Source: a virus
Lineage: Duplodnaviria > Caudoviricetes
DNA length: 64,000 bases
Reading direction: 5' to 3' (one strand)
Virus record (IMG/VR): IMGVR_UViG_3300031996_000001
Location: 1-64,000 of that record
Part shown: positions 1 to 64,000 of the stretch, in pieces
How the letters are laid out: each line of letters starts with the position of its first letter
Position numbering within the stretch: the stretch's first letter is position 1
The notes under the pieces: model-generated
Database searches by the model: none
The model's input: the letters and a program-made list of their open reading frames with translations, nothing else
What the model was told of the DNA's origin: nothing
Translations under genes and position numbers: made by a program

Positions 1-322
1 CCTTGACCAGCAGGGCCGACTGGGAGAGCGCGAGCGCGCGGACCAGGAAGCGCCCCACGGGCCCGGCGGATTCCGCCGCGAGCACTCCCCCACCGGCCCA
101 GACCGACGTGCAGGCGTGGCAGTTCACGGCCGTGTCGACCTTGTCCCAGAAGGCGTGCGGGACCAGCAGGTTGGACCCCAGCGGGCCGGTGCCCACCTCG
201 ACGTCGGCCACCGCGCGGCGCTGGATCCGCTGCCGGATCGGCTCGGTGATCTCGTCTTCCACGACCAGGCGTGTCAACCGCGCGGCGGCCAGGCCGAGGA
301 TGGTCAGCTTCAGGGCGTTCAT
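1..322 (-). CDS. DUF1360-family membrane protein (3' end truncated by window)
   Basis: Hand translation MNALKLTILGLAAARLTRLVVEDEITEPIR...VNCHACTSVWAG matches the RLTRL..D.ITEP / CxxCxSVW pattern; ATGA overlap with upstream gene. Confidence 0.75.
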   Translation of the reverse strand, partial: MNALKLTILGLAAARLTRLVVEDEITEPIRQRIQRRAVADVEVGTGPLGSNLLVPHAFWDKVDTAVNCHACTSVWAGGGVLAAESAGPVGRFLVRALALSQSALLVK

Positions 323-507
323 TCGGGCAGTCGGTCCAGTCTCTCGGCGTGCTCGGTGATCCGGGGCTTGTTCGGGTCCTTGGCGCGCAGGTCGTGGCAG
401 CGCTCGCCGGGGTGGGCGAAGCAGACCGGGCAGGTCACCGCCAGCGCACGCGGGATGAAGTGGGTGGCGCCGCACGCGCTGCAGCGGTACGGCATGTGCC
501 TCGCCAT
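319..507 (-). CDS. Small zinc-finger protein
   Basis: CxxC motifs, CPVCFAHPGERC; coupled to both neighbours. Confidence 0.7.
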   Translation of the reverse strand: MARHMPYRCSACGATHFIPRALAVTCPVCFAHPGERCHDLRAKDPNKPRITEHAERLDRLPE

Positions 508-800
508 CAGACCTTCTCGTGCTCGGAGGCGTAGATCTCGGGGTCTTCCCGACGGAAGCCGGACGCGCCCCGGACCACCCGGTCGCCCTGGCGGACGGTG
601 AACGGTCCCTCCAGGGTCTGCAGGATCAGCTGGTCGACGCCAACCTTCACCGCTCCCCCGTGCTCGGTGATCCAGTCGGCGACCTGCTGGACGTTGTCGG
701 TCGTCAGCACGGCCGACTCCCGGACGACGGGCTTGGCCCGGTGCAGCTCGACTACCAGCGGCTCGACGGTCTCGGTGAACTCGAAGGGCTCCACGGTCAC
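507..800 (-). CDS. Hypothetical phage protein (TLEG..GD.V.RG type)
   Basis: GTG at 800 overlaps upstream TGA; GC3-rich codons. Confidence 0.7.
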   Translation of the reverse strand: MTVEPFEFTETVEPLVVELHRAKPVVRESAVLTTDNVQQVADWITEHGGAVKVGVDQLILQTLEGPFTVRQGDRVVRGASGFRREDPEIYASEHEKV

Positions 801-1033
801 TCCTCGCGTAGGGAGAGCACGGCCATCGTCAGCGCGAGCGCGTCGACCGCCAATGCCTGCTCCAGGGTGGGGCGCCAGACGGTTGACACGACCACGGCCA
901 CGACGGCGGCGATCAGCGCGAAGACGGCGAACCACTGGACCTGGCCCAACCAGTTGACCGTGCGTCGCCAGCGACGGCGGATCTCGTCGCGGTGTCTCGT
1001 TGGCACGCCGGTCAGTTTGTCAGGCGTTGTCAA
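797..1033 (-). CDS. Small membrane protein
   Basis: Hydrophobic segments; TTG start lies inside a GTTGACA box. Confidence 0.6.
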   Translation of the reverse strand: MTTPDKLTGVPTRHRDEIRRRWRRTVNWLGQVQWFAVFALIAAVVAVVVSTVWRPTLEQALAVDALALTMAVLSLREE

Positions 1034-1820
1034 CCAAGAGTGGTCCCACGGCCCCGGCGTGTCCCTTGACGAAGGTCAGGTAGCAGCGGCAGTTCATCCA
1101 GGTGTGCGGCGGCGCCTCGGTGTCGCCGGGGAACCACAGCTTGTGGTCCTCGATGTCCACGAACGGCTCGGCGATCGGCACCCGGTGGAACTCGTACTTG
1201 GGCGCTCCCAGGAAGGCGTGCGCCGGGCGGACCCGGTTGTCGTGCACGTCGTTCCAGACCTTGTAGCGCCAGCCAGCGGCCTCAGCAGCGGCGATCTGCG
1301 CGGTGTGTCGGGTGGCCTGCACGAACGGCAGCGCGATCCGCTCGGGGTCGCTGTAGGTCTTCGCGTGCTCGTGGGCGTGCGGGTCGTAGGGCTCACCGGG
1401 CAGCGAGACACCTGGAGATCCGCCGGTGGCCTCGTCCACCCGGGCCGCGCGGGCGATGTGCTGCGCGGCCGACTTCAGCACCGCCAGCCCGCCGTTGACC
1501 CCGGCCTGCGCGGCCTCGTCGGCGTGCTCCCACAGCCCCTCGGACTGGCGCCTGCCGACCATGTCGCGCTGCTCGCCCAGCGCGCCGTGCGCGAGCTTGA
1601 CCAGCAGCGCGATGATCGCGGCGTCGTAGCCGATCTTGGTGGCCACGGTCAGCGGACTCCCGGCCACCCGTCCACCGGCGCGAGCGAAGGACATCACGCC
1701 CTGGGTGAAGGCGCTCAGCGCGGGCAGTGCGGCGGAGATCGCGGCGTCCTGCGCGGCCCGCACGGCGTCGTCGGTCGCGCTCGGCTTGCGCGGCGGCGGT
1801 GGCTGCTGCGGGGTGGTCAC
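1020..1820 (-). CDS. MuF-like (SPP1 gp7-type) minor head protein
   Basis: C-terminal KVW..VHDNRVRPAH...EPF...FPGD..AP...NCRC; GTG at 1820 overlaps terminase stop. Confidence 0.8.
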   Translation of the reverse strand: MTTPQQPPPPRKPSATDDAVRAAQDAAISAALPALSAFTQGVMSFARAGGRVAGSPLTVATKIGYDAAIIALLVKLAHGALGEQRDMVGRRQSEGLWEHADEAAQAGVNGGLAVLKSAAQHIARAARVDEATGGSPGVSLPGEPYDPHAHEHAKTYSDPERIALPFVQATRHTAQIAAAEAAGWRYKVWNDVHDNRVRPAHAFLGAPKYEFHRVPIAEPFVDIEDHKLWFPGDTEAPPHTWMNCRCYLTFVKGHAGAVGPLLVDNA

Positions 1821-3406
1821 CTGGTGGTCCTCCTGGGCACGGTGAGGGTGGTGCCGAAGTTGCCGAAGCCGCCGATGCCGGGGCGGCGGGCGGCGGCGGC
1901 GGCACCGAGCTGGGTGCGCGGCGCGGTGACGCCCCGGGTCAGCTGCGAGCGGGCGTCGATGCGCGTGCCGACGGGGGAGAGGTGGCTCGAAGCGCCGGGC
2001 ACCCCGCCCTTGACCAGGGCCTGCGGGAACAGCAGCGCCGACAGGCCGTGCACCACGGCGTCCAGCCGGTCGGGGGAGTAGCCGGAGTCCGTCGGGGTCC
2101 AGGTGGTGAGCTGGTCCTCCAGGTCCGGCAGCGAGTGCAGGTGGTGCACCCGGCCGCGCTCGTAGGCCGCGCCGACCGGCTCGGCGCGGATCGCCTTGGC
2201 CTTCGTGGACCAGACCTCGCGGATCTGCGGCGGGGGCACGTTGGCCGCCGCCGCGCACTCCTTCAGCACCCGGCGGACCAGCGAGCCGCCCTGGTTGTTC
2301 TCCACGATCACCGTGGCGCCGTGCTTGTGCGCGGCCTTGACCACGCGGTCTCCCCAGACGGTGGGGGAGGCCTTCAGCGACAGGTCGGAGACGACGTAGG
2401 CGTGCCGGTTGAGGATCGGCATGGTCAGCGGCGCGTAGATCACGACGATGCCGCACTCGTCGTTGGGCTTCTCCGCGACCGAGGGGTCCACCGAGATGAT
2501 CTTGACCCAGCGCTTGCCCTCCAGCTTGGGCAGCCCCGTGACGCGGTGCGCGTCGATGGTCTCCATGTCAACCGTCGCGCCCTCGACGGAGTCGAGCATC
2601 AGGCCTTCCAGCTCCTGAGCGCCCAGCGTCGTGCCGCCGTAGAGGCTGAACAGCGTGTTCAGGTAGGACTGGGACAGCTTGACGTTGTCCGTGGTCTTGC
2701 CCGTGCGCAGCAGCATCTTGCCGACGTTCTCGGCGATCTCGGCCAGCAGGGCGCGCAGGATCGGGACCCGCTTCGGGGTCGTCGTGGCGATCAGCTGGGG
2801 GAGCAGCCCGAGACGGGTGGCGATCCGGAGGTTGGTCCAGGCGTCCAGCTCGCCCTGGCCCTTGACCTGCTTGTATGCCGCGATCTCGTCGCCCCAGCCG
2901 ACGTGGAACTGGGGGCCACGCAGCTGGTCGGGCTCCTCAGCGGAGAAGCACAGCGCGAACCCGCCGCCGGGCAGGTTGACACGGCGCTGGGTGGAGATCC
3001 ACTCGATCTGGTCCTGCTCGGACGGCGGGTAGATGTTCAGCAGCCCGGACTGGCCGTTGAGGATCGTGTCGCGGACGTCGGCGGCCGTGCGGCCCAGCAG
3101 CGCCACACGCAGCTGCTGACCGGGATCGCGGCCCAGGGTGTGCCACTTCTTGTCGATCTCGCGGATGTACTGCGACCCGGCGAGGGTCTTGCCCCAACCA
3201 CGGCCCGCGTTGAGCAGGCCCAGCTCCCACTCGTACTCCGCCTCGCCCATCGGGCCGACCGGCAGGATCTGGGAGGGGCGCCCGTTCCACTTCCAGTCGT
3301 AGGGCAGGTCCTCCAGCTGCTCGTCGCTCAGCGCGTCGAGGAGGGCGTCCTGCGCGTCCTTGGGCAGCAGCGCGACCTGCTGCTCCAGCGACAGGTCGGT
3401 TGACAC
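1817..3406 (-). CDS. terL: Terminase large subunit
   Basis: Walker A GRGWGKT, DQLRGPQF, Walker B-like DE, C-terminal nuclease (DP, DECG, PDRLDA); TAGCCT -10 six nt before GTG suggests leaderless. Confidence 0.93.
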   Translation of the reverse strand: MSTDLSLEQQVALLPKDAQDALLDALSDEQLEDLPYDWKWNGRPSQILPVGPMGEAEYEWELGLLNAGRGWGKTLAGSQYIREIDKKWHTLGRDPGQQLRVALLGRTAADVRDTILNGQSGLLNIYPPSEQDQIEWISTQRRVNLPGGGFALCFSAEEPDQLRGPQFHVGWGDEIAAYKQVKGQGELDAWTNLRIATRLGLLPQLIATTTPKRVPILRALLAEIAENVGKMLLRTGKTTDNVKLSQSYLNTLFSLYGGTTLGAQELEGLMLDSVEGATVDMETIDAHRVTGLPKLEGKRWVKIISVDPSVAEKPNDECGIVVIYAPLTMPILNRHAYVVSDLSLKASPTVWGDRVVKAAHKHGATVIVENNQGGSLVRRVLKECAAAANVPPPQIREVWSTKAKAIRAEPVGAAYERGRVHHLHSLPDLEDQLTTWTPTDSGYSPDRLDAVVHGLSALLFPQALVKGGVPGASSHLSPVGTRIDARSQLTRGVTAPRTQLGAAAAARRPGIGGFGNFGTTLTVPRRTTR

Positions 3407-3468
3407 GCGGTCAGGCTATCGACACCGAGGGTGACGGCCGGTCCTTTGTAGGTCGACGGCCCAGACGA

Positions 3469-3675
3469 AAGCCCGGTCCGCATCGCAACGAGGCTGTGCG
3501 CGGACCGGGCTTCCTGATCAGTACCACCGCTGAGGCGGGTCTTCCCCACCCGTGGGTCCCCAGCTGATCGAGCCTAGAAGGGCCCGGAAACGGCTGGGGC
3601 CCACCCCCGACGCAGACAGGGGGGTGGGCCCACGCAACAGCAGCAGCCGCCGATGCGCAGTAGGAGACTACTGCG
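3469..3675. ncRNA. Candidate structured RNA / terminator cluster
   Basis: 13-bp stem 3469-3481/3500-3512; CCG-GAAA-CGG 3584-3593; 12-bp stem 3597-3631 with loop GACGCAGACAG; 8-bp stem with GAGA loop 3656-3675. Confidence 0.45.
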
Positions 3676-3687
3676 GATCGTTGGTGG

Positions 3688-4587
3688 TTACCAGCGTGCT
3701 CCTCGGGCCGCGAACGCGGCCTTGCACTTCGGGCCGATGTTGCGCCCGTCGCCGCCGTCGAACCCGCACTGCTTCGCCGCCGCGCGCACCACGGCTGCGG
3801 TCTGGTCGCCGTAGTAGCCGGTGACCGGCAGCAGCGGCAGGTTCGGGACCCAGTTGTAGGCGTTCGACCACTTCTGGAACAGCGCGACGTGCGAGCTGGT
3901 CTGCCCGTAGGCCAGTGAGGGCAGCGTGTTCGGGTCGAAGACCGGCGGCGGCGGCGGCGGGGGAGCGGCGTTGACGTAGGCCGGACGGCCCCATCCGGCG
4001 ACGCAGGCCATCGAGCGAGCGCGCCGCCAGACACCGCCGCCCATGCCCTGGTTGCCGGTGCCCGACGGCGGGGTGGTGTTGCCCTCGATGGTCTGGATGC
4101 GGCCGTCGGGGAGCTTCGCCTCCACGATGCCGACGTGGTCGATCCGCCCCTCCTGGCCGGGGTTGACGAACCCGCCGAGGCCCCAGTCGAAGAAGACGAC
4201 GTCGCCGACCTGCAGGTCATCCGGCGCCTGGTGGTGGTCCTCGAACCACTTGAAGAAGGTCGGCGTGTAGGCCGACTTCGGGATCAGGTTGCCGACCCCG
4301 GCGTGGTTGAACACCCACCAGACGAACTCGGCACACCAGGCCACCCGGTCCCAGCCGTAGTAGATGCCGTAGGGGTTGGACCCGTCGGCGGCCTCGACCG
4401 TGCCGATCTGGGAGGCGGCGACCGCCAGGACGGCGGCCTGCTGCGGACCGACCACGCGCCGGGCCAGCTCCTCGGGAGCCAGCGTCTCGCCGGTCTGCAC
4501 GGGCTGGGGGCCGTCGCCCTCGTACCAGCCGTTGTTGGTCTGGCGGACCTTGTCGTCGTCCTGGGTCAGGTCTTCTGCCTCGGTCAC
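3688..4587 (-). CDS. Endolysin, CHAP domain plus C-terminal peptidoglycan-binding-like domain
   Basis: WCAEFV, HVGIV, TIEGNT motifs; Pro linker; GGAGAG RBS before GTG 4587. Confidence 0.88.
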   Translation of the reverse strand: MTEAEDLTQDDDKVRQTNNGWYEGDGPQPVQTGETLAPEELARRVVGPQQAAVLAVAASQIGTVEAADGSNPYGIYYGWDRVAWCAEFVWWVFNHAGVGNLIPKSAYTPTFFKWFEDHHQAPDDLQVGDVVFFDWGLGGFVNPGQEGRIDHVGIVEAKLPDGRIQTIEGNTTPPSGTGNQGMGGGVWRRARSMACVAGWGRPAYVNAAPPPPPPPVFDPNTLPSLAYGQTSSHVALFQKWSNAYNWVPNLPLLPVTGYYGDQTAAVVRAAAKQCGFDGGDGRNIGPKCKAAFAARGARW

Positions 4588-4601
4588 GTTCTCTCCGTTC
4601 G

Positions 4602-5651
4602 TCAGAGCTTCCAGGCCCCGCCGACGCGCTTGTTGACGGTGGCCTGCTTCCACACGCCACCGACCCGCACGAAGGCGATGGCGTCCTTCCAGACCCCGGA
4701 CTGGCGCACCTTGGCGCCGGACAGGGTCTTGCTGCTCACCGAGGTCGACCAGGCGCCGTAGCCGTTCGGCGTGTTGGCCCGCACGCGGATGTAGTAGGTC
4801 GTCCCGGGGGTCAGCCCGGTGATGCTGCGCGAGGTCGCCCAGCTGGTCCCGGTGAGCGTCTGCACCACGTTGCTGAAGGCCGAGTCGGTGGCGACCTGCA
4901 CCTGGTAGCCGCTCGGCGTCGGCCCGACCCCGGGCGCGGCCCAGTTGGCCGTGGCGCTCGTCGCGGCCACGTTCGAGAGGGTCGGCGTGCCCGCCTTGAA
5001 CGGGTCAGCGGTGAACGACCCGGTGCCCGACCAGCCCGACCAGCCCGCGCCGTTGTGCGCGGCGGTGCGCATGTAGTACGTGACGCCCGGGGCGAAGATG
5101 TCCAGGCTGCGGCCGGTCCAGCCGGGCGTCTGGTTGTCGTAGACCAGGTTGCCGAAGTTGGTCGTGCCGATCTGCAGCCAGGTGTAGTCCGGGCTGGAAC
5201 CGCCGACGTCGGCCGGGTAGCCCCAGCCGAAGTCGGCGTGGTTGCCGGTGACGCTGCTGGCGGTGGGCGTGCCCGGGGGAGAGGTGACCCGGATCGGCTT
5301 GGCGGGCAGCGACCAGTCCCAGGCGAAGGACGGACCCGCGCCGAGGTAGACCCCGTTGAGGACGGCAGCGAAGTGGTAGGTCGGACCGCCGCCGTAGCTC
5401 TGGCCCTGGTTGTAGATCGTCCAGCCGAAGGTGGTGTCGCCGTTGGCGCCCTCGGTGTTCTGGAAGTTCCAGGTGTTGCTCTGCGGGCTGGTCATCACCA
5501 GCGACTGCGCGTCGTTGAAGTTCCACGACGAGTCGCACTGGACGTGCCACGTCATGTAGACGTTGATCGACGGGGTGTAGCTGTCGTAGCCGTCGGTCCA
5601 GACGTCCAGGCCGATGCGCAGGTGGTTGGTGAACCCACCCCAGACGGTCAC
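4602..5651 (-). CDS. Minor tail protein with two FN3-like domains
   Basis: PGTPT..WGYP / TYYIRVRA.T.NGYGAWS; C-terminal VRVGGVWK repeats. Confidence 0.75.
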   Translation of the reverse strand: MTVWGGFTNHLRIGLDVWTDGYDSYTPSINVYMTWHVQCDSSWNFNDAQSLVMTSPQSNTWNFQNTEGANGDTTFGWTIYNQGQSYGGGPTYHFAAVLNGVYLGAGPSFAWDWSLPAKPIRVTSPPGTPTASSVTGNHADFGWGYPADVGGSSPDYTWLQIGTTNFGNLVYDNQTPGWTGRSLDIFAPGVTYYMRTAAHNGAGWSGWSGTGSFTADPFKAGTPTLSNVAATSATANWAAPGVGPTPSGYQVQVATDSAFSNVVQTLTGTSWATSRSITGLTPGTTYYIRVRANTPNGYGAWSTSVSSKTLSGAKVRQSGVWKDAIAFVRVGGVWKQATVNKRVGGAWKL

Positions 5652-5661
5652 TGCTCAGCCC

Positions 5662-6006
5662 TCACGAAGCGGGCTGGAACCAGACCGTGCCGTCGGGAAC
5701 CGCGCCCGGGTCGGCCGTCTGGACGAAGGTCGCACGCATGGCCACCCAGGTGGTGCCGCCGGTGAAGCACATGAGCGAGCTGAGGTCGGTGCGGGTGAAC
5801 GTGTCCCCGGGCATCACCGAGGCGCCGGTCGGATAGGCGGTGCCCGAGCCCCAGTAGTAGTTGGGCATCCGGGTCACGCCGGTCGGCAGCGAGCGGCTGT
5901 AGAAGTAGTCCTCGACGGCCTGCGCGAGCGAGGAGAGCGCGGCCGGTCCGTCGGCGCCGTCCCCCGCCTCGGGGTAGGGCAGCTTCAGGTTCGCAGTGGT
6001 CCCCAT
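5662..6006 (-). CDS. Minor tail protein (paralogue of 6008-6700)
   Basis: N-terminus MGTTANLKLPYPE typical of actinophage minor tails. Confidence 0.7.
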   Translation of the reverse strand: MGTTANLKLPYPEAGDGADGPAALSSLAQAVEDYFYSRSLPTGVTRMPNYYWGSGTAYPTGASVMPGDTFTRTDLSSLMCFTGGTTWVAMRATFVQTADPGAVPDGTVWFQPAS

Positions 6007-6007
6007 G

Positions 6008-6700
6008 TCAGCCCGCCGTCCCGATCGCTACCCAGTTGAAGGTCAGGGTTCCGGCCACCGGGGCGCCGCCGGTCTGCGACGTCCAGCGGGCGAACACCTC
6101 CGCCACGGTCGTCGTGGTGGTGTCGCAGAACAGCTGCCAGCTGTAGGCCACGCCGGTGGTGGAGATGAGCGTGAGCTGCACGTTCGGCGGCTGCGCGAAG
6201 GTGGCCCCGAAGGCGATCTCGACCGAGCCGAAGGTGCCCGCCGCGCCGATGGTGATCGTGCCGGTGCCGCTGCGGATCAGCGAGCGGTTGCGGACGTTCC
6301 AGGTGCCGGTGCCGTCCCACTCGTAGGTCACGTTCGTGTCGACCTGGCGGACCGTGAAGCCGGAGTGGAGCAGCGAGGCGTTGGCGCCGGTGGACAGCGC
6401 CAGCCGCGCCGTCTGGCTGGCCACGTCGGTGGTCTCGGCCTGCCGCCAGGCGCTGCCGTTCCAGCGCATCAGCGCGGGGCCCAGGCCCTGGTGGGTGAAG
6501 GTGTCCCCGGTGGCCACGCCGGTCGGGAACGACGACCCGGCGCCCCAGTTGTAGACCGGCATCCGGGTGATCCCGGCGGGGAGGATGCGCCGGTAGAAGA
6601 AGTCCTCGACCCCCTGCGCGAGCGCATCGAAGGACGACGGCCCGTCCACGGCGTCCGTCAGCTCCGGGTACGGGAGCTTCAGGTTCGTGGTGACGCCCAA
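6008..6700 (-). CDS. Minor tail protein, possible C-terminal H-lectin-like domain
   Basis: MGVTTNLKLPYPE; C-terminal F..TFAQPPNV....FNWVAIG. Confidence 0.7.
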   Translation of the reverse strand: MGVTTNLKLPYPELTDAVDGPSSFDALAQGVEDFFYRRILPAGITRMPVYNWGAGSSFPTGVATGDTFTHQGLGPALMRWNGSAWRQAETTDVASQTARLALSTGANASLLHSGFTVRQVDTNVTYEWDGTGTWNVRNRSLIRSGTGTITIGAAGTFGSVEIAFGATFAQPPNVQLTLISTTGVAYSWQLFCDTTTTTVAEVFARWTSQTGGAPVAGTLTFNWVAIGTAG

Positions 6701-57360: not shown

Positions 57361-57407
57361 TCGTCCACCCTTCGTAGGGTCCGGTTGACGCGCCGTCACC
57401 CTGTCTT

Positions 57408-57438
57408 GTTGACATTCGTTGACATAGCGGCGCATACT
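57408..57438 (+). promoter_or_regulatory. Promoter with tandem boxes
   Basis: TTGACA-18-CATACT-7-ATG; boxes at 57408 and 57418. Confidence 0.82.
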
Positions 57439-57445
57439 CGGAGCC

Positions 57446-57814
57446 ATGACGCAGACGATCGCCAGACCCGGCACCTACATGAACACCGTCCCGGCGCGGG
57501 TCTCTGACCGCGTGCAGATGGCCCAGACCGTCGGCTACCGCGACTCCCACCTCGGCCTCCGGCTCTACCGCTACGACCTGGTCAGCGTGGCCGAGGCGCG
57601 CGAGGAGTTCGGCGCGACGCTGGAGGACGCCCGGTCCTTCGTCGGCAACTCGACCTGCCAGGAGTGCGGGCTGGCCGCCTGCGAGCTGCGCGAGTGCTTC
57701 GAGTGCGAGACCAAGGGCTGCGCCTGCCTGATCCGCGAGGGAGACCACGATGACCACTACTGGTGCGCTGACTGCACCCGCCCCTGCTACGGCCGCTGCT
57801 GCACCGACGACTGA
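57446..57814 (+). CDS. Cys-rich hypothetical protein, leaderless (MTQT)
   Basis: Several CxxC motifs. Confidence 0.65.
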   Translation: MTQTIARPGTYMNTVPARVSDRVQMAQTVGYRDSHLGLRLYRYDLVSVAEAREEFGATLEDARSFVGNSTCQECGLAACELRECFECETKGCACLIREGDHDDHYWCADCTRPCYGRCCTDD

Positions 57815-58025
57815 CGTCCTGGTCTACCAGCTGGAGGTCGACGTCGTCCGCGACCGCAACGCCCGGCCGTGGCGCGAGCGCACCCACCACGTCACCGTGG
57901 CCGTGGACGACCAGCCCAGCCTGACCCGGGCCGACACCGAGGCGCGCAACCTCGCGGCCTGGATGTGCTGGCACGTCCGGGGCTCGATGGTCACCGCCGT
58001 GCGCATCGTGGCCGTGGAGCTGTGA
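57750..58025 (+). CDS. Hypothetical protein
   Basis: GAGGGAG RBS; 65-nt overlap with upstream gene. Confidence 0.55.
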   Translation: MTTTGALTAPAPATAAAAPTTDVLVYQLEVDVVRDRNARPWRERTHHVTVAVDDQPSLTRADTEARNLAAWMCWHVRGSMVTAVRIVAVEL

Positions 58026-58034
58026 AGAAAGTTT

Positions 58035-58074
58035 GTTGACACTGTTGACATCGTTGACAGAGAGGAGTCATACT
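58035..58074 (+). promoter_or_regulatory. Promoter with three tandem boxes
   Basis: GTTGACA at 58035, 58044, 58053; TTGACA-18-CATACT-6-ATG. Confidence 0.82.
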
Positions 58075-58080
58075 GTGTCC

Positions 58081-58761
58081 ATGATGATCAAAGAGCCCAG
58101 CGCCCCCGCCAGCCCGGCCCAGGTCAGCTACCTGGAAAGCCTGGTCAAGGACCGCGACCTGCCCGCCATCTGCGAGCGCTACCAGCTGCTGAGCGAGCTG
58201 GGCGCGCTGACCAAGGGCCGCGCCAGCGAGTTCATCGACCAGCTGCTGAAGGCGCCGAAGAAGGCCCACAAGGCCACCGTGATGGCCCAGCCGGTCGTCG
58301 CGCCGATCCCGAACCTGGTCCCCCAGCTGAGCGAGCTGCCCGCCTTCGGGTACTACAAGCTCGGCGAGGACGTCCTCTACTACTGGGACGTGACCGGCAA
58401 GGACGCCTACCCCCAGCTGCGGAAGCTGCACATCGGCCAGAGCTACAACTACTCGACCGGCAGCTACGTCACCAAGGGCAGCTGGAAGAAGATCTACGGC
58501 AGCTACAAGGACGCCAAGGTCACCGCGACCTTCAAGCCCTACGGCGGCAAGGGCTACTACACCGGCGAGAAGACCAGCCAGGTGAGCGTCCCGAAGGTGC
58601 TGGCCGAGGCCGTGGTCGCCGGGTTCAAGCCGCTGACCCAGGCCGAGGCCGGAGCGCTCGGCAAGCAGTTCGGGTTCTGCGTCCGGTGCGGCGCCACCCT
58701 GACCGACCCGGTCTCGGTCGCCGACGGAATCGGCCCGGTCTGCAAGACCTACTGGTTCTGA
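58081..58761 (+). CDS. DUF6011-domain protein, leaderless
   Basis: C-terminal CVRCGATLTDPVSVADGIGPVC. Confidence 0.75.
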   Translation: MMIKEPSAPASPAQVSYLESLVKDRDLPAICERYQLLSELGALTKGRASEFIDQLLKAPKKAHKATVMAQPVVAPIPNLVPQLSELPAFGYYKLGEDVLYYWDVTGKDAYPQLRKLHIGQSYNYSTGSYVTKGSWKKIYGSYKDAKVTATFKPYGGKGYYTGEKTSQVSVPKVLAEAVVAGFKPLTQAEAGALGKQFGFCVRCGATLTDPVSVADGIGPVCKTYWF

Positions 58762-58775
58762 TCCCCACCACGAGA

Positions 58776-58799
58776 GGCCCCCGGTTGACACCGGGGGCC
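58776..58799. terminator. Hairpin whose loop is TTGACA
   Basis: GGCCCCCGG-TTGACA-CCGGGGGCC. Confidence 0.7.
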
Positions 58800-58819
58800 C
58801 CTGCACGAGAGGAGGCCTG

Positions 58820-59125
58820 ATGGCCTCGAAGAAGAACCAGCCGCTGTGGGTCATGGAGAACCTGCCCGAGCCGCCGATCGTCAAGGGCTACTGGGACTAC
58901 GGGACGGTCTTCTCGGTCTACGCCCACCGGCCGCGCATCGACTACTGGCGCGACCTCTGGCACCAGCTCTACTGGGGCCTCTGGTCCTACTACTACTGGG
59001 GCAAGAAGGTCCGGAAGTCCCTGCCCTACGCGCTGGCCGACCTCCGGAACTGGCTGCTCCGGCGGCCGTCGGCCTCACCCGCCAAGGTGACGAAAGGCCC
59101 TGCAGCTGAGAAGACCGGCGTATAG
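58820..59125 (+). CDS. Trp/Tyr-rich hypothetical protein
   Basis: RBS GAGGAGG. Confidence 0.65.
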   Translation: MASKKNQPLWVMENLPEPPIVKGYWDYGTVFSVYAHRPRIDYWRDLWHQLYWGLWSYYYWGKKVRKSLPYALADLRNWLLRRPSASPAKVTKGPAAEKTGV

Positions 59126-59163
59126 TTGTCACTGTCAACACGTCGAGTGAGAGGAGGACTCCG

Positions 59164-59541
59164 ATGAGCTACCAGGTCAACGTGGACCATCCCGAGAACG
59201 ACGAACGGCAGGCGAAGGACTGGTTCGCCTGGTTCCAGTGGTCGCAGACCCACGCGCCGCTCGCCGGAGTCGGCATCGACGTGATGGCCAACATCCTGAC
59301 CGCCGTGTGCGCCCAGGACGTCGCCGGAGACATCTGCCGGATCCTGGACCTCGGCGGCAAGCTCAGCTTCGTCCAGGCCCGCCTCGTGGCGAAGATGGCC
59401 GACAGCGTGATGAACGATGAAGTCCGGGCGGTCTTCAAGAACGCCGTGGACAACGGCTACGGCGTGACCGTGGAGTTCAGGCGGGGCGGCTTCGGCGCTC
59501 CCAGCGCCTCGGAGTACCGCGAGAAGGAAGCGTCGGCCTGA
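59164..59541 (+). CDS. Hypothetical protein
   Basis: RBS GAGGAGG; upstream TATAGT at 59121 followed by box at 59133. Confidence 0.65.
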   Translation: MSYQVNVDHPENDERQAKDWFAWFQWSQTHAPLAGVGIDVMANILTAVCAQDVAGDICRILDLGGKLSFVQARLVAKMADSVMNDEVRAVFKNAVDNGYGVTVEFRRGGFGAPSASEYREKEASA

Positions 59542-59990
59542 CCGCACTGAGCCAGCACCTCGCGGACCAGCAGCGGCAGCTGAAGCTGCGGGCGCCCCTC
59601 GGTCAGCGTCTCCACCGCGTGCTCGGCGTTCGGCGCGATGATCGCCTTGAACCGGGTGCACTCCAGCAGCGCGTCGTTGGCGATCGGGTCGACCTCGGGA
59701 CGGCAGTCCTCGCATGGCACCCGGCGCTCCAGGTGCTCGCCGATCTCGATGGCCTTGTGCCAGGGCACCATGCGGCGGTTGACACGGGCGCACCACGGCG
59801 CGTGCGCGACCGAGGACCGGCCGATCTTCGAGATCAGGTAGGTGCCGTCCTCCAGCCGGTAGACCGCCAGCTCGCTCCAGCGCGCTGAGCCGGTCCTGGC
59901 CGAGGTGGCCGCGCCGATGACGGCCGCCCGGAAGCGCAGCACGCGCGACCCGTCCCGGACCTGGTGCACGGCCACCGAAGGGGCGGTCAT
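59457..59990 (-). CDS. Conserved actinophage hypothetical protein
   Basis: DG.R.LRF....RWSEL.VYR..DG.Y...IG.S.V.H...C. Confidence 0.7.
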   Translation of the reverse strand: MTAPSVAVHQVRDGSRVLRFRAAVIGAATSARTGSARWSELAVYRLEDGTYLISKIGRSSVAHAPWCARVNRRMVPWHKAIEIGEHLERRVPCEDCRPEVDPIANDALLECTRFKAIIAPNAEHAVETLTEGRPQLQLPLLVREVLAQCGQADASFSRYSEALGAPKPPRLNSTVTP

Positions 59991-59992
59991 GC

Positions 59993-60286
59993 TCAGCTGT
60001 CCGAGTCGCGCTTGACCCGGTAGAGGCTGGTCCCCGGGCCGTTGGCCGGTCCGCCCGGCGGCCGGATGCGCACCATGAGGCCTCGGCCGACCAGCGCCTT
60101 CAGGCGGCTGGCCACCCGCTGCGTGGTGGCGTCCTCGAAGTCGACCTGCACCTTCTTGGCGATGTCAACCGGCCGCATCGCGTCCGTGGCGACATCCATG
60201 ATGCGCTGGTCGAGGGGCATTACCGGTCGGCGAGCGGTGCCCGTGCGGGCTGGAGGCTCCCGGAGCACGATCGCGTCAGCCGTCAT
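59993..60286 (-). CDS. Winged-helix DNA-binding protein, leaderless
   Basis: MRPVDIAKKV......VASRLKALVGRGLMVR...LYR; TATTCT-7-ATG. Confidence 0.65.
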   Translation of the reverse strand: MTADAIVLREPPARTGTARRPVMPLDQRIMDVATDAMRPVDIAKKVQVDFEDATTQRVASRLKALVGRGLMVRIRPPGGPANGPGTSLYRVKRDSDS

Positions 60287-60356
60287 GCTGCTGAGAATAG
60301 TGCTGAAAGCTCAACAGTGACGGCTGAACGCGCTCGTGTCACCGAATAGAAGGTGC

Positions 60357-61121
60357 TCAGGGGGTCGGCGTGGGCGCAGGACCGAGGCGCACGATGGCGC
60401 GCGGCGACGTCTCGATCAGCGCCTCCTGCGTCACCTGGATCATCTCGCGGTTCTGCTGGATCGCCAGCATGACCTTCTCCTCGTTGATCTCGGAGATGGT
60501 GATGCGGATGGGTCCGGTGAAGAAGACGCGCGGCGAGCCGGTCATCCCGGGCAGGTCGTAGTAGCCCTCGCTGATGACGACCATGTCGCCCCAGGCGCTG
60601 TAGTCCTGGCCGTCCTGCGGGTTGATCGTGATGACCCCGGCGACCCGGAGCTTGGGCGCGATGTCGGGGTGGACGTGCATGATCGGCCGGTTCGCCGAGC
60701 GCTGGAAGAACTCCCGGCGCGCGTCGGAGATGGCCGCGATGAAGACGTCGAGGTCGGCCAGGCCGGGGTCGGCGACTTCCAGCGCCTCCGGGCTACCCAC
60801 CCAGACGTCGGAGAGGCCCTGGCGGACCAGGAAGCCCATGCCGATGGCCATCTCGTTGTGCTCGGCCAGCGCCTTCTTCAGCCAGGTCTCGTCGTCCGGC
60901 TTCTGCGTGCGCGTGTTGCGGCGCAGCGTGGCCACGATCGGGAAGGCGTGGGTGCGGTACGGGCAGACGATCGACCCGTCGTCGCCGATGACGTCGGCGG
61001 TGACAGCGGGATCGCAGTCGGCCAGGTAGATGGACAGACCGGCCTCGCGGTCGTCCACGCTCTCGCCCCGGTTCCAGTTCCCGGTTCCGGTCGTGACCTC
61101 GGCAGCGTCGAGCAGGCGCAC
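60357..61121 (-). CDS. Probable major capsid pentamer-type protein
   Basis: IMHVHP.IAP.L...G....WGDMVVISEGY....TGPIRI...N..I pattern recalled from actinophage pentamer proteins; RBS GGAG. Confidence 0.45.
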   Translation of the reverse strand: MRLLDAAEVTTGTGNWNRGESVDDREAGLSIYLADCDPAVTADVIGDDGSIVCPYRTHAFPIVATLRRNTRTQKPDDETWLKKALAEHNEMAIGMGFLVRQGLSDVWVGSPEALEVADPGLADLDVFIAAISDARREFFQRSANRPIMHVHPDIAPKLRVAGVITINPQDGQDYSAWGDMVVISEGYYDLPGMTGSPRVFFTGPIRITISEINEEKVMLAIQQNREMIQVTQEALIETSPRAIVRLGPAPTPTP

Positions 61122-61168
61122 GTCTTCTCCTTCAGAGTCGGCGGCCGTCGCCGCGCGTGATCAGGGTG

Positions 61169-61882
61169 TCACAGAGAGGTGAGTGTGATGGTCCCGTTGC
61201 CCGTCAGGTGGGCGTCGAAGATGGACGACCGGGCGACGATGCCCTTGGCCGTGCCGCTGGCCAGGTCCTTGCCCCACTGCAGCGGCAGGTTGACCGTGGT
61301 CGTCGTCCCCAGCGGCACGCTGAAGGTCAGCGGGTCGCTGTAGGTGTTCAGTGGCAGCGAGCGGTCGACGTTCTTGTGCAGCGCGAGCTGCACCGTGCCG
61401 GAGTCGACCTCCAGCGTCATCGCCACCGAGGCCAGCTTCTTGGTGCTGAAGCTGCTGAAGGCCCCGGCGGCGTAGAACCAGGCGCCGGTTGACACGAAGT
61501 CCTGGGACTGGGTGAGCCCGAGCGTGCCGTCGGAGCGCCAGTGCCCCGCCGGGTAGGCCGTGGTGATCTCCCAGTTGTCCAGGATCGAGGGCGCCACGAC
61601 CAGCGTGCTCGGCGCAGGTGGTGCGGCGGGCGCGGCGGGGGCCACCGGCGAGCCGATCGCCAGCGAGCCGAAGGTGGCCTGGATGAGCAGGTAGCAGATG
61701 TCGTTGACCGCCGGGGCCCAGCTGCCCTTCAGGTAGGGCACGTTGCTGAAGACGTCGCCGTCGACCGACACCGTCAGCGCCCCCGTGGCGACCGCCGTGA
61801 CCTTGCCCTTGCGCAGCACCGCGCCACGGTCGCCGAGCGTCGCCAGCACGCCCAGAAGCGGATCGTCGGCCATCTCAGGCAC
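61169..61882 (-). CDS. Minor tail protein
   Basis: N-terminal G.VTAV.T..V.VDG....VPYL..W.P.VND.C. Confidence 0.75.
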   Translation of the reverse strand: MPEMADDPLLGVLATLGDRGAVLRKGKVTAVATGALTVSVDGDVFSNVPYLKGSWAPAVNDICYLLIQATFGSLAIGSPVAPAAPAAPPAPSTLVVAPSILDNWEITTAYPAGHWRSDGTLGLTQSQDFVSTGAWFYAAGAFSSFSTKKLASVAMTLEVDSGTVQLALHKNVDRSLPLNTYSDPLTFSVPLGTTTTVNLPLQWGKDLASGTAKGIVARSSIFDAHLTGNGTITLTSL

Positions 61883-62972
61883 CCTCGGGAGGCTCGGAGG
61901 TCAGACACGTCGCGTTCCAGGCGCCGGTGCCCAGCGGCAGCGTCGTCTGCTGCAGCAGGTAGGTCTTCAGGTGGTTGCCGTCGGGGTCGGAGGTGGCCAC
62001 CGGGTCCCCAGCCTCCAGCAGCGGCAGCGGTCCGGCCGACAGCGTCATGGTCGCCTTGTAGGCCAGGCTCTCGGCCAGCAGCCGCTGCGCGTAGGCGACG
62101 CACTGCGCGTCCTGCGTGAAGAACTGGGACGAGTAGAAGCCGGTGATCTTCCCGAATCCGGTCGCGCTGTAGTAGGTCGGCGAGGTCGGGTCGTTGTCGC
62201 TGGCGAAGCCCCAGCACGGCGGGACGTTCGCGTCGGCGGACTGGCCCGAGACCGACCAGGCGTTGTAGACCCCGTCGCGGCTCTCGCCGTAGGACTCCTC
62301 GATCAGCACACCGGCCGGACCGGCGACGACGGAGAAGACCGGCACCAGGTTGGTCAGGTCCGGGGCGTCCACGATGTACCAGCGGCCGTCGTAGCCGCAG
62401 AAGACCTCGGCGTGGATCGACTTGGCCAGCCCCGTGATGGTGTCCCACCGCTCCTTGTCCCAGGCGGCGGTGTCGGTGACCATCTTGTCGAGGGAGTTCA
62501 GCGCGACGATCTGCGCGTCCGGCACCGACTCCAGGATCAGGCTGGAGATCGTGTCAACCGTGCTCGCGCCGTAGGGCGGGGTGCGCGGCCGGATGAACCG
62601 GTCGTCAATGACCAGCTGCTCCAGGCCCTTCAGGGTGATCGCCAGCGAGCCCTTGTAGCCGTTGTCGTAGTCGTAGGCCAGGTACTCCCCGACCTGCACG
62701 GACTCCTTGATGCCGATCGAGGTGACGCCCATCCGGATCCGCACTCGGGTGCCGTCGATGGCCAGCTGCGTGCTGGCGATGTCCCACGAGTACATGGCCA
62801 GGGTCGCCGAGGCCGTGTAGCGGGTGTTGGAGCCCCGGTCGCAGGTGACCGTGCCGTCGACCACGGGGATGTCGGCGGCGACCACGACGCCGTCCCGGAC
62901 GATGTCCAGCTCGGTGAACATCGTCCGGGAGTAGGACATCGACTCCCGGAACAGCTTGCTGGTGGGGATCAC
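61875..62972 (-). CDS. Tail hub/baseplate protein (DUF5047-like)
   Basis: IPVVDGTVT.DRGS..R....R.RI.MG...VGEY...WDKERW.TI..LA...P.P.LEAGD. Confidence 0.78.
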   Translation of the reverse strand: MIPTSKLFRESMSYSRTMFTELDIVRDGVVVAADIPVVDGTVTCDRGSNTRYTASATLAMYSWDIASTQLAIDGTRVRIRMGVTSIGIKESVQVGEYLAYDYDNGYKGSLAITLKGLEQLVIDDRFIRPRTPPYGASTVDTISSLILESVPDAQIVALNSLDKMVTDTAAWDKERWDTITGLAKSIHAEVFCGYDGRWYIVDAPDLTNLVPVFSVVAGPAGVLIEESYGESRDGVYNAWSVSGQSADANVPPCWGFASDNDPTSPTYYSATGFGKITGFYSSQFFTQDAQCVAYAQRLLAESLAYKATMTLSAGPLPLLEAGDPVATSDPDGNHLKTYLLQQTTLPLGTGAWNATCLTSEPPEGA

Positions 62973-64000
62973 GGGGCCCCCGGCGCGACCAGCGCGGCGT
63001 CCAGCCAGTTGGTGCGGGCGGAGAAGATGTCCAGCCAGTTGACATAGCCCGCCTTGGCCATGCCCCAGGTGACGACCGTGGAGGCCTCGATCAGGCCGGT
63101 CGGCCGCTCGACCACGGTGAACGGCACGGTCCACAGCCGCTGCTGCTGGTTCTCCGCCCCGTCGCCCAGCGGGTCCTTCACCGTGTCCCCGACGGCCAGG
63201 TAGAGGTAGGGCTCCTGGTAGCGCGGGTCCGGGTTGCGGTAGAGCAGGATCCGGCCGGAGGCGAACAGCACCTCGGCCACCTCGGCGTCCGAGTCGGTGT
63301 AGGTCATCAGGGTCATCTGGCCGGTCGGCTTGCCCCGCACCTGGCTGACCGCGATCCGGTAGGCCTTGGAGAGCACGTCGTACTCGTTCTTGCGCGCCGG
63401 GAAGGTCAGGCTGCCGAACTTCTGCAGCTCGAACCACAGCGCCAGCTGCGGCGCCACCGGGTCGCTGAGCAGCACCGGCGCCTTGGCGGGCAGGCTGGCC
63501 GGAGCCGACAGGGTGAGGTTGGTCGACGTGGCGACCTTGCTGGGCCCGGAGAAGACCGACGGCGAGTTGTTCACCGTGCCCGTCCAGGCCATCGAGGCGT
63601 CGCCGGAGTTGTCCGCCCAGTGGCTGCCCGGCAGCATGTTCGCGGCCGGGTTCGCGGGCAGCACGGAGTCCCCGTCGAAGTAGGTCAGCCCGCCGCCGCT
63701 GGTCATCTCCGAGTTCAGGCAGACCATGATCGTGCTCAGGTGCCAGGACACAGCGAACTCGCGCTGGCTGGTCCCGTGCATGAAGGCCAGGCGGCAGTTG
63801 GCCGGGGCGCCCGCCGGGATGGTGATGACCCCGGAGAAGGTCAGCCACGACCCGCCCAGGCCGACCTGCGCGCCGATGATCTGGAACGGCGCCACCCAGG
63901 TCGCGTAGTCGGTGACCTGCGCGACCGAGGCCGAGGCGAACGCGGTGCCCGACCAGGCGTAGGTGGTGGCGCCGACCGCTGCGCTGCCGCCGTCGAAGTA
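62969..64000 (-). CDS. Distal tail/minor tail protein (5' end outside window)
   Basis: Open to window edge; WL.DP..P.L...VR..P.G..TL...LF.SGR.LL.R. Confidence 0.7.
   Translation of the reverse strand, partial: YFDGGSAAVGATTYAWSGTAFASASVAQVTDYATWVAPFQIIGAQVGLGGSWLTFSGVITIPAGAPANCRLAFMHGTSQREFAVSWHLSTIMVCLNSEMTSGGGLTYFDGDSVLPANPAANMLPGSHWADNSGDASMAWTGTVNNSPSVFSGPSKVATSTNLTLSAPASLPAKAPVLLSDPVAPQLALWFELQKFGSLTFPARKNEYDVLSKAYRIAVSQVRGKPTGQMTLMTYTDSDAEVAEVLFASGRILLYRNPDPRYQEPYLYLAVGDTVKDPLGDGAENQQQRLWTVPFTVVERPTGLIEASTVVTWGMAKAGYVNWLDIFSARTNWLDAALVAPGAP

Follow-up and report, generated by a model that had tools for sequence, protein, structure and literature searches.

An evenly spaced GGTTGACA site array across the genome of an uncultured high-GC phage and its relatives

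A short word written about once per kilobase

Why would a high-GC phage genome carry a short word containing the standard bacterial promoter −35 box about once per kilobase, mostly inside genes? We examined this question in a 64,000-nucleotide stretch (hereafter the window; positions 1 to 64,000 of the IMG/VR record IMGVR_UViG_3300031996_000001, Caudoviricetes), in the whole record (82,691 bp, 69.8% GC) and in related contigs. The initial annotation had described about 60 exact GGTTGACA copies and about 90 copies of GTTGACA, and this observation holds. The window contains exactly 63 copies of GGTTGACA on both strands, whereas 100 dinucleotide shuffles gave a mean of 1.25 and a maximum of 6, and it contains 92 copies of GTTGACA against 3.9 expected. 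The whole record contains 79 copies of GGTTGACA, the most frequent 8-mer of the genome.

The sites are built by selection at the DNA level, against codon preference. A codon-aware null had been named in advance as a way to refute the enrichment, and it did not do so: shuffling synonymous codons within genes left 13.5 ± 2.0 copies, of which 11 were untouched intergenic or gene-edge sites, so that about 2.5 coding copies are expected against 68 observed. All frames that do not create a stop are used (RLT, xVDT/M, V/M-ST and xVNx), and, as initially described, the starts of terL (3398), 23695-24156, 27590 and 47423 carry the word. Across four related genomes, 46% of all GTT codons and 49% of all TCA codons lie within the word, although each represents only 2.3% of the codons of its amino acid. 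The word is strict (Y-GGTTGACA-C-G): one-mismatch variants are at or below expectation, and the flanks are flat beyond Y at −1 and C and G at +8/+9, so this is not a mobile repeat.

Orientation and spacing

The sites show no bias relative to transcription. In the window, 33 are in the same orientation, 23 are opposite and 7 are intergenic or at gene edges (the initial annotation gave about 35 versus 24), and in four genomes the counts are 118 same versus 104 opposite. Spacing is far more even than chance, with a coefficient of variation (CV) of the gaps of 0.58 and 3 gaps under 350 bp against 22 expected (P < 5e-5); in four genomes the gap CV is 0.48-0.59 (P < 1e-4 against uniform placement). 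The evenness belongs to both orientations taken together: the union of + and − sites is more even than two independent strand sets (shift null, P = 0.0002-0.004 in each genome), while the per-strand CV is 0.65-1.17 and the order of orientations is random. Spacing is much less even in the 61-62% GC relatives (CV 0.85-0.89). The main features are listed in Table 1.

Table 1 Sites, promoter boxes and candidate genes in the window
Position	Strand	Feature	Observations
272..62559	.	Dispersed array	63 exact GGTTGACA sites (24 on +, 39 on −), consensus Y-GGTTGACA-C-G, mean spacing about 1 kb; continues to the end of the 82.7-kb record with 16 more sites
272..279	-	Site inside gene 2-322	CGG TTG ACA = RLT; conserved at the same codons even in the distant relatives G407 and G411
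2974..2981	+	Site inside terL	Antisense to the gene (RVNL); conserved 8/8 in G001, G002 and G003
3398..3405	+	Site overlapping the terL start codon	GTG TCA ACC; conserved in G001 and G002
3406..6862	.	Largest gap in the array (3.46 kb)	Holds the CHAP endolysin gene (3688-4587) and the FN3-domain protein gene (4602-5651), neither with a homologue in the relatives, so this may be recently acquired DNA not yet furnished with sites
7795..7810	-	Promoter, tandem GTTGACA boxes (period 9)	Then CATACC
8837..8853	+	Promoter, two GTTGACA boxes plus a degenerate third (GTTGATA)	Then CATACT
13134..13140	-	Promoter, single proximal box	GTTGACA, 8 nt, TATTGT, 7 nt, then the leaderless start ATGACGCAG
25344..25359	+	Tandem-box promoter	Distal box 18 nt and proximal box 9 nt from CATACT
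26252..26267	+	Tandem-box promoter	Then CATACC and a leaderless ATGACGCAG
29913..30323	-	Probable terminase small subunit	Weak PHROG match; conserved in array-bearing genomes and in the array-less G410
32609..32624	-	Tandem-box promoter	Then CATACT, 6 nt, then leaderless ATGACGCAGACAG
34553..34568	-	Tandem-box promoter	Then TATAGT and a leaderless GTGACGCAG
36591..36597	-	Promoter, proximal box	Upstream box degenerate (GTTGAC); then TATAGT and a leaderless ATGACGCAG
43174..43181	-	Site in the PrimPol gene	Conserved 8/8 in G001, G002 and G003
49157..49164	+	Site in the DNA polymerase I gene	TGG TTG ACA = WLT; present at the same codons in G407 and G411, lost in G001-G003
49617..49624	+	Site in the DNA polymerase I gene	VVDT; conserved in G001, G003 and G412
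53921..54211	+	96-aa protein after the helicase gene	Invariant QTAYRIRRG; a confident model has no clear structural match; also present in the array-less relative L145, so probably not the reader
56131..56146	+	Tandem-box promoter	Just upstream of the gene pair 56167-57298
56167..56418	+	Candidate reader, 83-aa basic protein	No family hit; found in every array-bearing genome that covers this module (G000-G003, G407, G411, G412); not found in the two array-less fragments
56438..57298	+	Candidate reader, 286-aa orphan protein	Arg/Lys-rich C-terminal tail; same presence/absence pattern as 56167-56418; family found only on metagenomic contigs, including those of these phages
57408..57424	+	Tandem-box promoter (period 10)	Then CATACT
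58035..58059	+	Promoter with three boxes	Period of 9
59777..59784	+	Site	Conserved 8/8 in G001, G002 and G003
59993..60286	-	Candidate reader, 97-aa predicted winged-helix DNA-binding protein	Last gene of the tail operon; recognition helix TTQRVASRLKAL invariant in 27 homologues
60163..60170	-	Site inside the winged-helix gene itself	CCG GTT GAC ATC = PVDI

Conservation of the array among relatives

The trait is lineage-specific and not a host property. At least eight related contigs carry the array (59-109 copies per complete genome). It is carried by the complete genomes G000-G003 and the more distant G407 and G411, together with G412, L113/L119 and L123. Conservation of sites in related phages had been proposed beforehand as a check, and exact conservation in aligned DNA is 95/187 (51%) among close relatives, against 14-19% for arbitrary aligned 8-mers. 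By contrast, density is kept while positions turn over in distant relatives, with only 2 of 14-18 mapped sites shared with G407, G411 or G412. Two syntenic relatives, G410 and L144/L145, lack the array. The other condition named at the outset as able to refute selection, equal enrichment in host chromosomes, was examined in 401 Actinomycetes genomes, none of which comes near the phage density; the maximum is about 159 copies per 5.7 Mb, or 1 per 36 kb. The phage density is about 200-fold higher than in a Streptomyces genome and at least 30-fold higher than in any of the 401.

The same heptamer in phage promoters

The 29 non-GG GTTGACA copies of the window (32 in the whole record) form a separate class of promoter boxes. 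Downstream of non-GG boxes, −10-like hexamers peak at 8 nt and at 17 nt. Some promoters have three phased boxes, and some have only the box 8 nt from the −10, a position that region 4 of sigma cannot occupy in an initiating holoenzyme given the established promoter geometry (17 ± 1 bp spacer). The GG sites avoid the 150 bp around promoter clusters (about 6 of 87 against about 20 expected).

Candidate readers

The initial annotation had inferred that synonymous codons were selected to build binding sites for a protein coating the whole genome, and had proposed seven binders; this interpretation is partly supported. Selection at the DNA level, retention in relatives and non-polarity with respect to transcription all hold, and the joint even spacing fits a duplex-binding 'coverage' role. 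However, no binder is identified, and both genome coating and the proposed sigma region-4 decoys stay inferences that were not tested here. Five of the seven proposed binders (10309, sigma-r4-like; 13561, HTH_17; 23695; 25643, Lsr2-like; and 28020, GerE/LuxR) have no homologue in the three close relatives that carry the same array and are therefore unlikely readers, and 45150 is missing from the more distant array-bearing genomes. Only 59993 survives, being conserved in all the complete array-bearing genomes (G000-G003, G407 and G411). Its predicted winged-helix fold (pLDDT 83) resembles the DNA-binding domains of Fur, PadR and MarR. Against it, the recognition helix is clearly different in G407 and G411 (THEAATRLWRL), although their core word is the same, and a homologue exists in the array-less G410. 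The co-occurrence of the gene pair 56167-57298 with the array rests on two incomplete array-less contigs and is confounded by phylogeny.

A model of anchoring sites for uniform genome coverage

Our preferred reading, which we hold tentatively, is that the GGTTGACA copies are high-affinity, single binding sites on duplex DNA for a sequence-specific protein that reads the heptamer GTTGACA, the same word that in tandem copies 9-10 bp apart sits on the −35 and in the spacer of the phage's own sigma-A-type promoters. We think that the reader is phage-encoded, the candidates being, in order, the winged-helix protein 59993-60286 and the lineage-specific pair 56167-56418 / 56438-57298. Under this model, selection acts on coverage rather than on particular positions: every 1-2 kb of phage DNA must carry one site, in either orientation, redundant neighbours decay, and lost sites are replaced nearby. 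The bound array would then act along the whole chromosome, either as a non-polar roadblock or global shut-off of transcription, or as a coat or scaffold that marks, organises or protects phage DNA, and the same protein would control the box-bearing promoters. Our analysis establishes that the sites are real, selected, strict, orientation-blind, jointly evenly spaced and kept across the lineage, and that promoters use the same word in a geometry that sigma alone cannot explain; that a protein binds them, which protein it is and what the binding achieves are inferred, as no binding was measured. The reader and the purpose of the signal are still unknown.

Alternative explanations and comparison with known systems

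The leading alternative, which we consider unlikely, is that the reader is the host RNA polymerase holoenzyme, through region 4 of the housekeeping sigma factor. The sites would then be −35 elements without a −10 that concentrate or hold polymerase on phage DNA (landing pads) or titrate sigma away from the host (decoys). The core is a perfect consensus −35 hexamer, the distal promoter box lies 16-18 nt from the −10 as a real −35 does, and unrelated low-GC phages (G004 and G005) use GGTTGACA, then 14-15 nt, then TGnTAnAAT as ordinary promoters, so that GG-TTGACA is a good sigma site and host sigma-A could be the reader. In addition, more than 95% of GG sites lack a −10, and the word stays the same across phages of 61-71% GC, as expected for a universal host reader. 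Conversely, the syntenic relatives G410 and L145 use the same kind of promoter but have no array, and the proximal box 8 nt from the −10 needs another reader. The G before TTGACA is obligatory in the 70% GC clade (397 of 399 TTGACA) and Y at −1 is found at 96% of GG sites, neither of which is a recognised sigma-70 contact. Even spacing on a 1-kb scale is not predicted by titration.

Less likely still, the word may be the recognition site of an enzyme acting on phage DNA, either a site-specific nickase, as in T5, phiKMV-like and tf-like phages, or a site-specific base modification. An enzyme would also recognise a strict word on duplex DNA, and such all-or-none recognition is more typical of enzymes than of regulators; the site is asymmetric and about 11 bp long, like the nick-associated words of other phages, and the phage encodes dCTP deaminase-like and ThyX enzymes. 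However, no nickase, HNH enzyme, methyltransferase or other DNA-modification gene was found among the roughly 75 proteins scanned (about 50 small ORFs were not scanned, and virion DNA was not mapped for nicks or modified bases), and the dCTP deaminase-like and ThyX genes are not conserved in the relatives. Nor would a strand-specific nick predict evenness shared by both orientations, and the same word is part of the promoters.

A dispersed self-recognition signal for DNA packaging, recognised by the small terminase subunit (29913-30323) or a partner so that any stretch of phage but not host DNA can be taken up by a headful packaging machine, appears improbable. Selection is of the coverage type with turnover of positions, the word discriminates self from host, the probable TerS is conserved in all members, and G407 assembles with a 28-bp end overlap, that is, as a circle. 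Yet the TerS homologue is also present in the array-less G410, its assignment is weak (E = 7e-6 to a PHROG), known pac systems use one site per genome, and the same word in promoters is not explained.

Strand-polar signals read by a translocating or synthesising machine, either Chi-like sites that tame a host or phage helicase-nuclease or start sites for the phage PrimPol/primase on the lagging strand, are already disfavoured. The 1-kb spacing resembles Okazaki fragment length, and the phage encodes PrimPol (42815-43858), a DUF3987 helicase, an exonuclease and a Sak4 annealase. However, PrimPol and DUF3987 are absent from the array-bearing G407 and G411, the exonuclease and Sak4 are present in the array-less G410 and L145, and no Actinomycetes genome among those examined is enriched, so this is not a host Chi within that class.

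Least likely is hijacking or titration of host WhiA, which binds GACAC with a sigma-region-4-like helix-turn-helix: its motif overlaps the last four bases of TTGACA and is read like a −35 element (PMC10243135), and 73% of sites in the 70% GC clade read GGTTGACAC, but the invariant part is Y-GG-TTGACA and not GACAC, the base after the word is unbiased in G407 (19 A, 44 C, 37 G and 34 T over all 134 GTTGACA copies) although 102 GG copies are kept, and the array is absent from the relatives G410 and L145.

A polar signal predicts evenness within each orientation, which is the opposite of what we observe: each orientation alone is near random, and only the two together are evenly spaced. This points to a reader of duplex DNA and not to a strand-polar signal of the Chi, primase or stoperator kind.

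Genome and abundance of the word

The genome examined is an 82,691-bp IMG/VR virus record (69.8% GC, estimated 94% complete), of which the window is the first 64 kb. A GC3-based gene call gave 128 genes covering 92% of the record, including those for a terminase large subunit, DNA polymerase I, an SF2 helicase, an exonuclease, a Sak4-like annealase, a PrimPol with a DUF3987 helicase, an Lsr2-like protein, a GerE-type HTH, ThyX, a dCTP deaminase-like protein and a CHAP endolysin. Megablast of 12 kb against 50,697 phage records gave no match, and the best terL match to any isolate is 46% identity, to actinophages; the distant isolates with the best terL matches (DSL-LC01, GMA2 and Phendrix) do not carry the word described here.

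The dense, genome-wide recurrence of GGTTGACA reported in the initial annotation is confirmed. The word occurs 63 times in the window, where dinucleotide shuffles give 1.25, and 79 times in the whole record, where it is the commonest 8-mer; GTTGACA occurs 92 times in the window against 3.9 expected. A maximum-order Markov expectation (63 against 79) was uninformative, because the 7-mers are themselves enriched. Agreement with a codon-aware null had been specified in advance as an outcome that would overturn the observation, and no such agreement was found: shuffling synonymous codons within genes leaves 13.5 copies, 11 of them untouched non-coding or gene-edge sites, so that about 2.5 coding copies are expected against 68 seen. 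All frames that avoid a stop codon are used, including, as the initial annotation had stated, positions at start codons. In four related genomes, 46% of all GTT codons and 49% of all TCA codons lie inside the word. The consensus is Y(96%)-GGTTGACA-C(73%)-G(62%), and information content falls to background beyond positions -1 and +10. One-mismatch variants are not enriched, so recognition is strict, and the copies do not share the extended flanks or terminal repeats of a dispersed mobile repeat (MITE/REP-like).

Two classes of site and the geometry of the array

The 32 GTTGACA copies in the record that are not preceded by G form a separate class, being mostly intergenic and usually tandem, 9-10 bp apart, and followed by CATACT or TATAGT and, 6-7 nt later, by a leaderless start (ATGACGCAG). 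Many genes begin directly 6-7 nt after the -10 with a conserved (A/G)TGACGCAG(AC), as leaderless mRNAs with a conserved 5' end, whereas in a 62% GC relative (G407) the same promoters are followed by leaders with Shine-Dalgarno sequences. Over six genomes, -10-like hexamers peak at 8 nt and at 17 nt after the non-GG boxes, so the distal box is a canonical -35 and the proximal box lies in the spacer. By contrast, the dispersed copies preceded by G (GG class) lack the arrangement of a sigma-70-type promoter: -10-like hexamers are at background at 16-18 nt, with only a small excess at 8 nt (15 against 5.8 expected among 485 sites), and more than 95% of GG sites are therefore not promoters. Some promoters have three phased boxes, and some have only the box 8 nt from the -10, a position that sigma region 4 cannot occupy while region 2 holds the -10, given established promoter geometry. 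We infer a second reader of GTTGACA.

Orientation relative to transcription is unbiased, with 33 same and 23 opposite in the window, 36 and 32 in this genome, and 118 and 104 in four genomes. Of the 79 sites, 68 lie wholly inside genes, spread evenly along them, and only 13 of 222 coding sites lie within 12 nt of a start or stop. Spacing is far more even than chance, with a gap CV of 0.58 and 3 gaps under 350 bp against 22 expected. This evenness belongs to the union of both orientations: sliding the minus-strand set against the plus-strand set raises the CV to 0.77-0.85 (P = 0.0002-0.004 in each of four genomes), each orientation alone has a CV of 0.65-1.17, and the order of orientations is random. 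Such a pattern is what a reader of duplex DNA with a coverage requirement predicts, and is the opposite of what a polar signal (Chi, priming site or polar roadblock) predicts. GG sites also avoid the 150 bp around promoter clusters (about 6 of 87 against about 20 expected). The largest gap in the array coincides with a lysis/host-interaction cassette that has no homologue in the relatives, as if it were recently acquired DNA.

Coordinates of features in the phage genome (window numbering; the last three rows lie beyond the window)
Position	Feature	Observation
3406-6862	Largest gap in the array	Holds the lysis/host-interaction cassette
3688-4587	CHAP endolysin	No homologue in the relatives
4602-5651	FN3 protein	No homologue in the relatives
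7820-57460	Leaderless genes	For example 13100, 26290, 32590, 34530, 36570, 56167 and 57446
10309	Binder proposed in the initial annotation	No homologue in G001-G003
13561	Binder proposed in the initial annotation	No homologue in G001-G003
23695	Binder proposed in the initial annotation	No homologue in G001-G003
25643	Binder proposed in the initial annotation	No homologue in G001-G003
28020	Binder proposed in the initial annotation	No homologue in G001-G003
45150	Binder proposed in the initial annotation	Missing from G407 and G411
50874-51380	Conserved 168-aa protein after the polymerase gene	Looks like a RuvC-type resolvase by eye (AVDPGGTTGW near the N-terminus); no Pfam hit; PHROG 1981 is of unknown function
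53921-54211	96-aa protein	Invariant QTAYRIRRG
56167-56418	Candidate reader, basic, 83 aa	Adjacent to 56438-57298, behind a tandem-box promoter
56438-57298	Candidate reader, orphan	Arg-rich tail
57446-57814	Cys-rich 122-aa protein (CCTECG...CxxC motifs)	Conserved in G001-G003 but not in G407/G411; probably a zinc-binding protein of unknown role
59993-60286	Candidate reader, predicted winged-helix protein	Also proposed in the initial annotation
75075-77648	Large head-module protein	Paralogous to 80979-82613
77687-80581	964-aa protein	Flanked by the two paralogues
80979-82613	Large head-module protein	Paralogous to 75075-77648

Distribution across relatives and bacterial genomes

A scan for the tandem promoter word found three complete relatives, G001, G002 and G003, with 70, 66 and 59 copies, which share about 72% identity with this genome (G000) over about 37% of its length and have the same even spacing. 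Conservation of the sites in related phages had been proposed beforehand as a check, and in aligned DNA 95 of 187 sites (51%) are conserved 8/8, against 14-19% for arbitrary aligned 8-mers. Across G000-G003, the 70% GC clade, 397 of 399 TTGACA hexamers are preceded by G, where codon shuffles predict roughly 2 non-G copies per genome; the rule is relaxed in the more distant G407 and G411 (134 of 160 and 138 of 156), and may reflect selection against stray boxes. These more distant relatives (helicase 43% identity, capsid 56-59%, 61-64% GC) also carry the array, with 102 copies in G407, 109 in G411 and 28 in 38.8 kb of G412, and a further contig, L123, carries it too. In these distant relatives, the 3' C/G preference is gone, spacing is less even (CV 0.85-0.89) and only 2 of 14-18 mapped sites are at the same codons as here. 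Density is maintained while positions turn over.

Two syntenic relatives lack the array (array-less relatives, IMG/VR 3300048917_000656 and 3300046837_000192). G410, a 36.6-kb fragment with capsid 63-67% identity, which is closer than G407, has 0 copies and shows no decayed remnants of sites at orthologous positions, and no integrase was found in this 'provirus' relative. L144/L145 carry the same replication module and have 1 copy in 20 kb. The two large paralogous head-module proteins that flank the 964-aa protein have homologues in G407, G411 and G412, but none was detected in G410, although that region is covered. In two related low-GC (47-49%) fragments of large phages, G004 and G005 (L073 and L081; IMG/VR 3300006115_000085 and 3300025379_000052), 23 and 26 copies of GGTTGACA occur, nearly all on one strand and each followed after 14-15 nt by TGnTAnAAT. 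These are ordinary strong sigma-70-type promoters that use the same extended -35, not the dispersed array.

Equal enrichment in host chromosomes, the other result named at the outset as one that would count against selection in the phage, was likewise not seen among the bacteria surveyed. A 9.5-Mb Streptomyces genome has 45 copies against 96 for the reversed control, and none of 401 Actinomycetes species genomes exceeds about 159 copies per 5.7 Mb; ten of those genomes are unpublished, and the conclusion does not rest on them. This holds only if the host belongs to that class. An Actinomycete host is suggested by the Lsr2-like gene, the terL relatives and the leaderless genes, but proteins of the G001 contig (IMG/VR 3300034175_000069) are deposited at NCBI as 'hypothetical protein [Longimicrobium sp.]', the contig having been binned into a Gemmatimonadota MAG, a phylum that was not surveyed here. 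This is either a host hint or a binning artefact from the shared high GC content.

Candidate readers

Of the binders proposed in the initial annotation, 10309, 13561, 23695, 25643 and 28020 are rejected as readers because they are absent from relatives that keep the array, and 45150 is missing from the array-bearing G407 and G411. PrimPol/DUF3987 is rejected because it is absent from the same two genomes, and no WhiB-like protein was found by cysteine pattern. The remaining proposed binder, 59993-60286, is conserved and syntenic in all the complete array-bearing genomes. It is confidently predicted to be a winged-helix protein (pLDDT 83; resembling Fur, PadR and MarR DNA-binding domains), and its recognition helix is invariant in 27 homologues; however, the helix differs in G407 and G411, and a diverged homologue exists in the array-less G410. 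The protein 53921-54211 looked promising because its invariant motif is superficially like the sigma region 4.2 helix, but its model is alpha-beta-alpha-beta-beta rather than helix-turn-helix, it has no Foldseek match and only weak VIA matches (Z up to 4.8, to R3H/KhpB-like and Alba-like folds), and it occurs in the array-less L145.

The adjacent genes 56167-56418 and 56438-57298 are found in every array-bearing genome that covers the module and in neither array-less fragment. No family or structure search explains them, and the orphan 56438-57298 gave nothing in Pfam, PHROGs, NCBIfam or PDB profile searches. These are leads, not proof, because the fragments are incomplete and the comparison is confounded by phylogeny. 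Protein complexes were not modelled, as no protein-protein claim is made.

Models for the function of the array

Our results establish a real, strongly selected, lineage-wide and orientation-blind lattice of one -35-containing word, whereas the existence of a second reader of the box, its phage origin, the operator role of the promoter boxes and the purpose of the lattice are inferred. The initial proposal, that synonymous codons were selected to build binding sites for a protein coating the whole genome, is partly supported. As a tentative reading, which we nonetheless consider the most likely, the sites bind a phage-encoded GTTGACA-box protein and give uniform coverage of the chromosome. Host sigma-A capture is an unlikely but surviving alternative, kept alive by the ordinary promoters of G004 and G005, in which the same 8-mer is simply the -35. 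Less likely still is the recognition site of an enzyme, for which single-strand interruptions in virion DNA at the word were not mapped here, followed by a packaging self-signal, which we regard as improbable. Polar signals are very unlikely, given the joint spacing of the two orientations and, for Chi-like sites, the lack of enrichment among the Actinomycetes surveyed. WhiA titration is the weakest model, since the C that completes GACAC, the motif of WhiA regulon sites, is kept in 73% of sites in the 70% GC clade but is unbiased in G407, which keeps 102 copies, so GACAC is not the conserved part of the word.

A more far-reaching possibility, doubtful on present evidence but not excluded by it, is that the word is a 'self address code', read on duplex DNA by a phage protein so that any piece of phage DNA longer than about 2 kb is recognised as self. 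That recognition could serve selective coating or protection against host nucleases or silencers, or selective packaging, and promoter control by the same protein would be a second use of the same code. This would be a new class of genome-wide signal in viruses, maintained by coverage selection with rapid positional turnover, and gained or lost as a unit together with its reader gene(s), such as 56167-57298 or 59993-60286.

If a protein really reads this array, these phages devote about 1% of their sequence, and nearly half of two rare codons, to a DNA-level code that overrides codon preference in essential genes such as terminase, polymerase, helicase and tail genes. It would show that selection for uniform coverage of a viral chromosome by one binding site can shape coding sequence, and would extend the stoperator idea from polar, intergenic sites in temperate phages to a non-polar, intragenic lattice in phages with no sign of lysogeny in the proteins scanned. 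The natural array-less relatives give a ready comparison for finding the reader gene. In practical terms, the word is a near-diagnostic marker for this uncultured phage lineage in metagenomes, and a caution for synonymous recoding or synthesis of such genomes.

Comparison with known systems

We found no published description of this array: a literature search for the 8-mer alone returned only primer lists, and searches for over-represented words in phage genomes and for nick-site words found nothing on it. The closest counterparts are the stoperators and the monomeric immunity repressor of Cluster A mycobacteriophages (L5 gp71, Bxb1 gp69), Cluster CA Rhodococcus phages and Streptomyces R4-like phages (PMC9283540, PMC6550527, PMC13313380, PMC10276819). 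In those phages, too, many copies (24-36 per 50 kb) of one asymmetric word with a TTGACA/TGTCAA core are spread over the whole genome, and the word is also the operator at an early promoter, overlapping the -35; here, GTTGACA boxes lie on the -35 and in the spacer of about a dozen promoters. Stoperators, however, are 13-14 bp, lie between genes or on gene termini, and point one way relative to transcription (PMC13313380), whereas the specified part of the present word is only about 9-11 bp, 86% of copies lie inside genes in four reading frames, orientation is random and spacing is even, so that the defining location and orientation of stoperators do not apply. No homologue of the Cluster A repressor, no integrase and no sign of lysogeny was found among the roughly 75 proteins scanned, but about 50 small ORFs were not scanned, which leaves undecided whether this is a temperate phage with a homologous monomeric two-domain repressor. 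The phages are unrelated, as the terL identities indicate.

Chromosome and plasmid organisers that load or nucleate at dispersed sites (Noc and SlmA sites, and the KorB operators of plasmid RK2) similarly use tens of specific sites scattered over a replicon and read on duplex DNA regardless of gene orientation, giving a replicon-wide effect. Those sites are palindromic and bound by dimers, mostly intergenic or indifferent to coding, and far sparser, and no ParB, Noc or TetR homologue was found here among the proteins scanned. Chi, KOPS and the DUS/USS uptake sequences of bacterial genomes are likewise short words over-represented 50-fold or more, written through coding sequence at about one per 1-5 kb and maintained by selection with turnover of positions. 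Chi and KOPS are strand-polar and skewed with replication, in contrast to the random orientation and joint spacing observed here, and DUS/USS mark the host chromosome, whereas the 401 Actinomycetes genomes are not enriched. Finally, the nick-associated words of T5, phiKMV-like and tf-like phages are likewise strict, asymmetric words dispersed through the coding DNA of a phage lineage and evenly spaced. Those words are strand-specific or evenly spaced per strand, and sparser, whereas here the spacing is joint for both orientations, at one per kb, and the word doubles as a promoter box.
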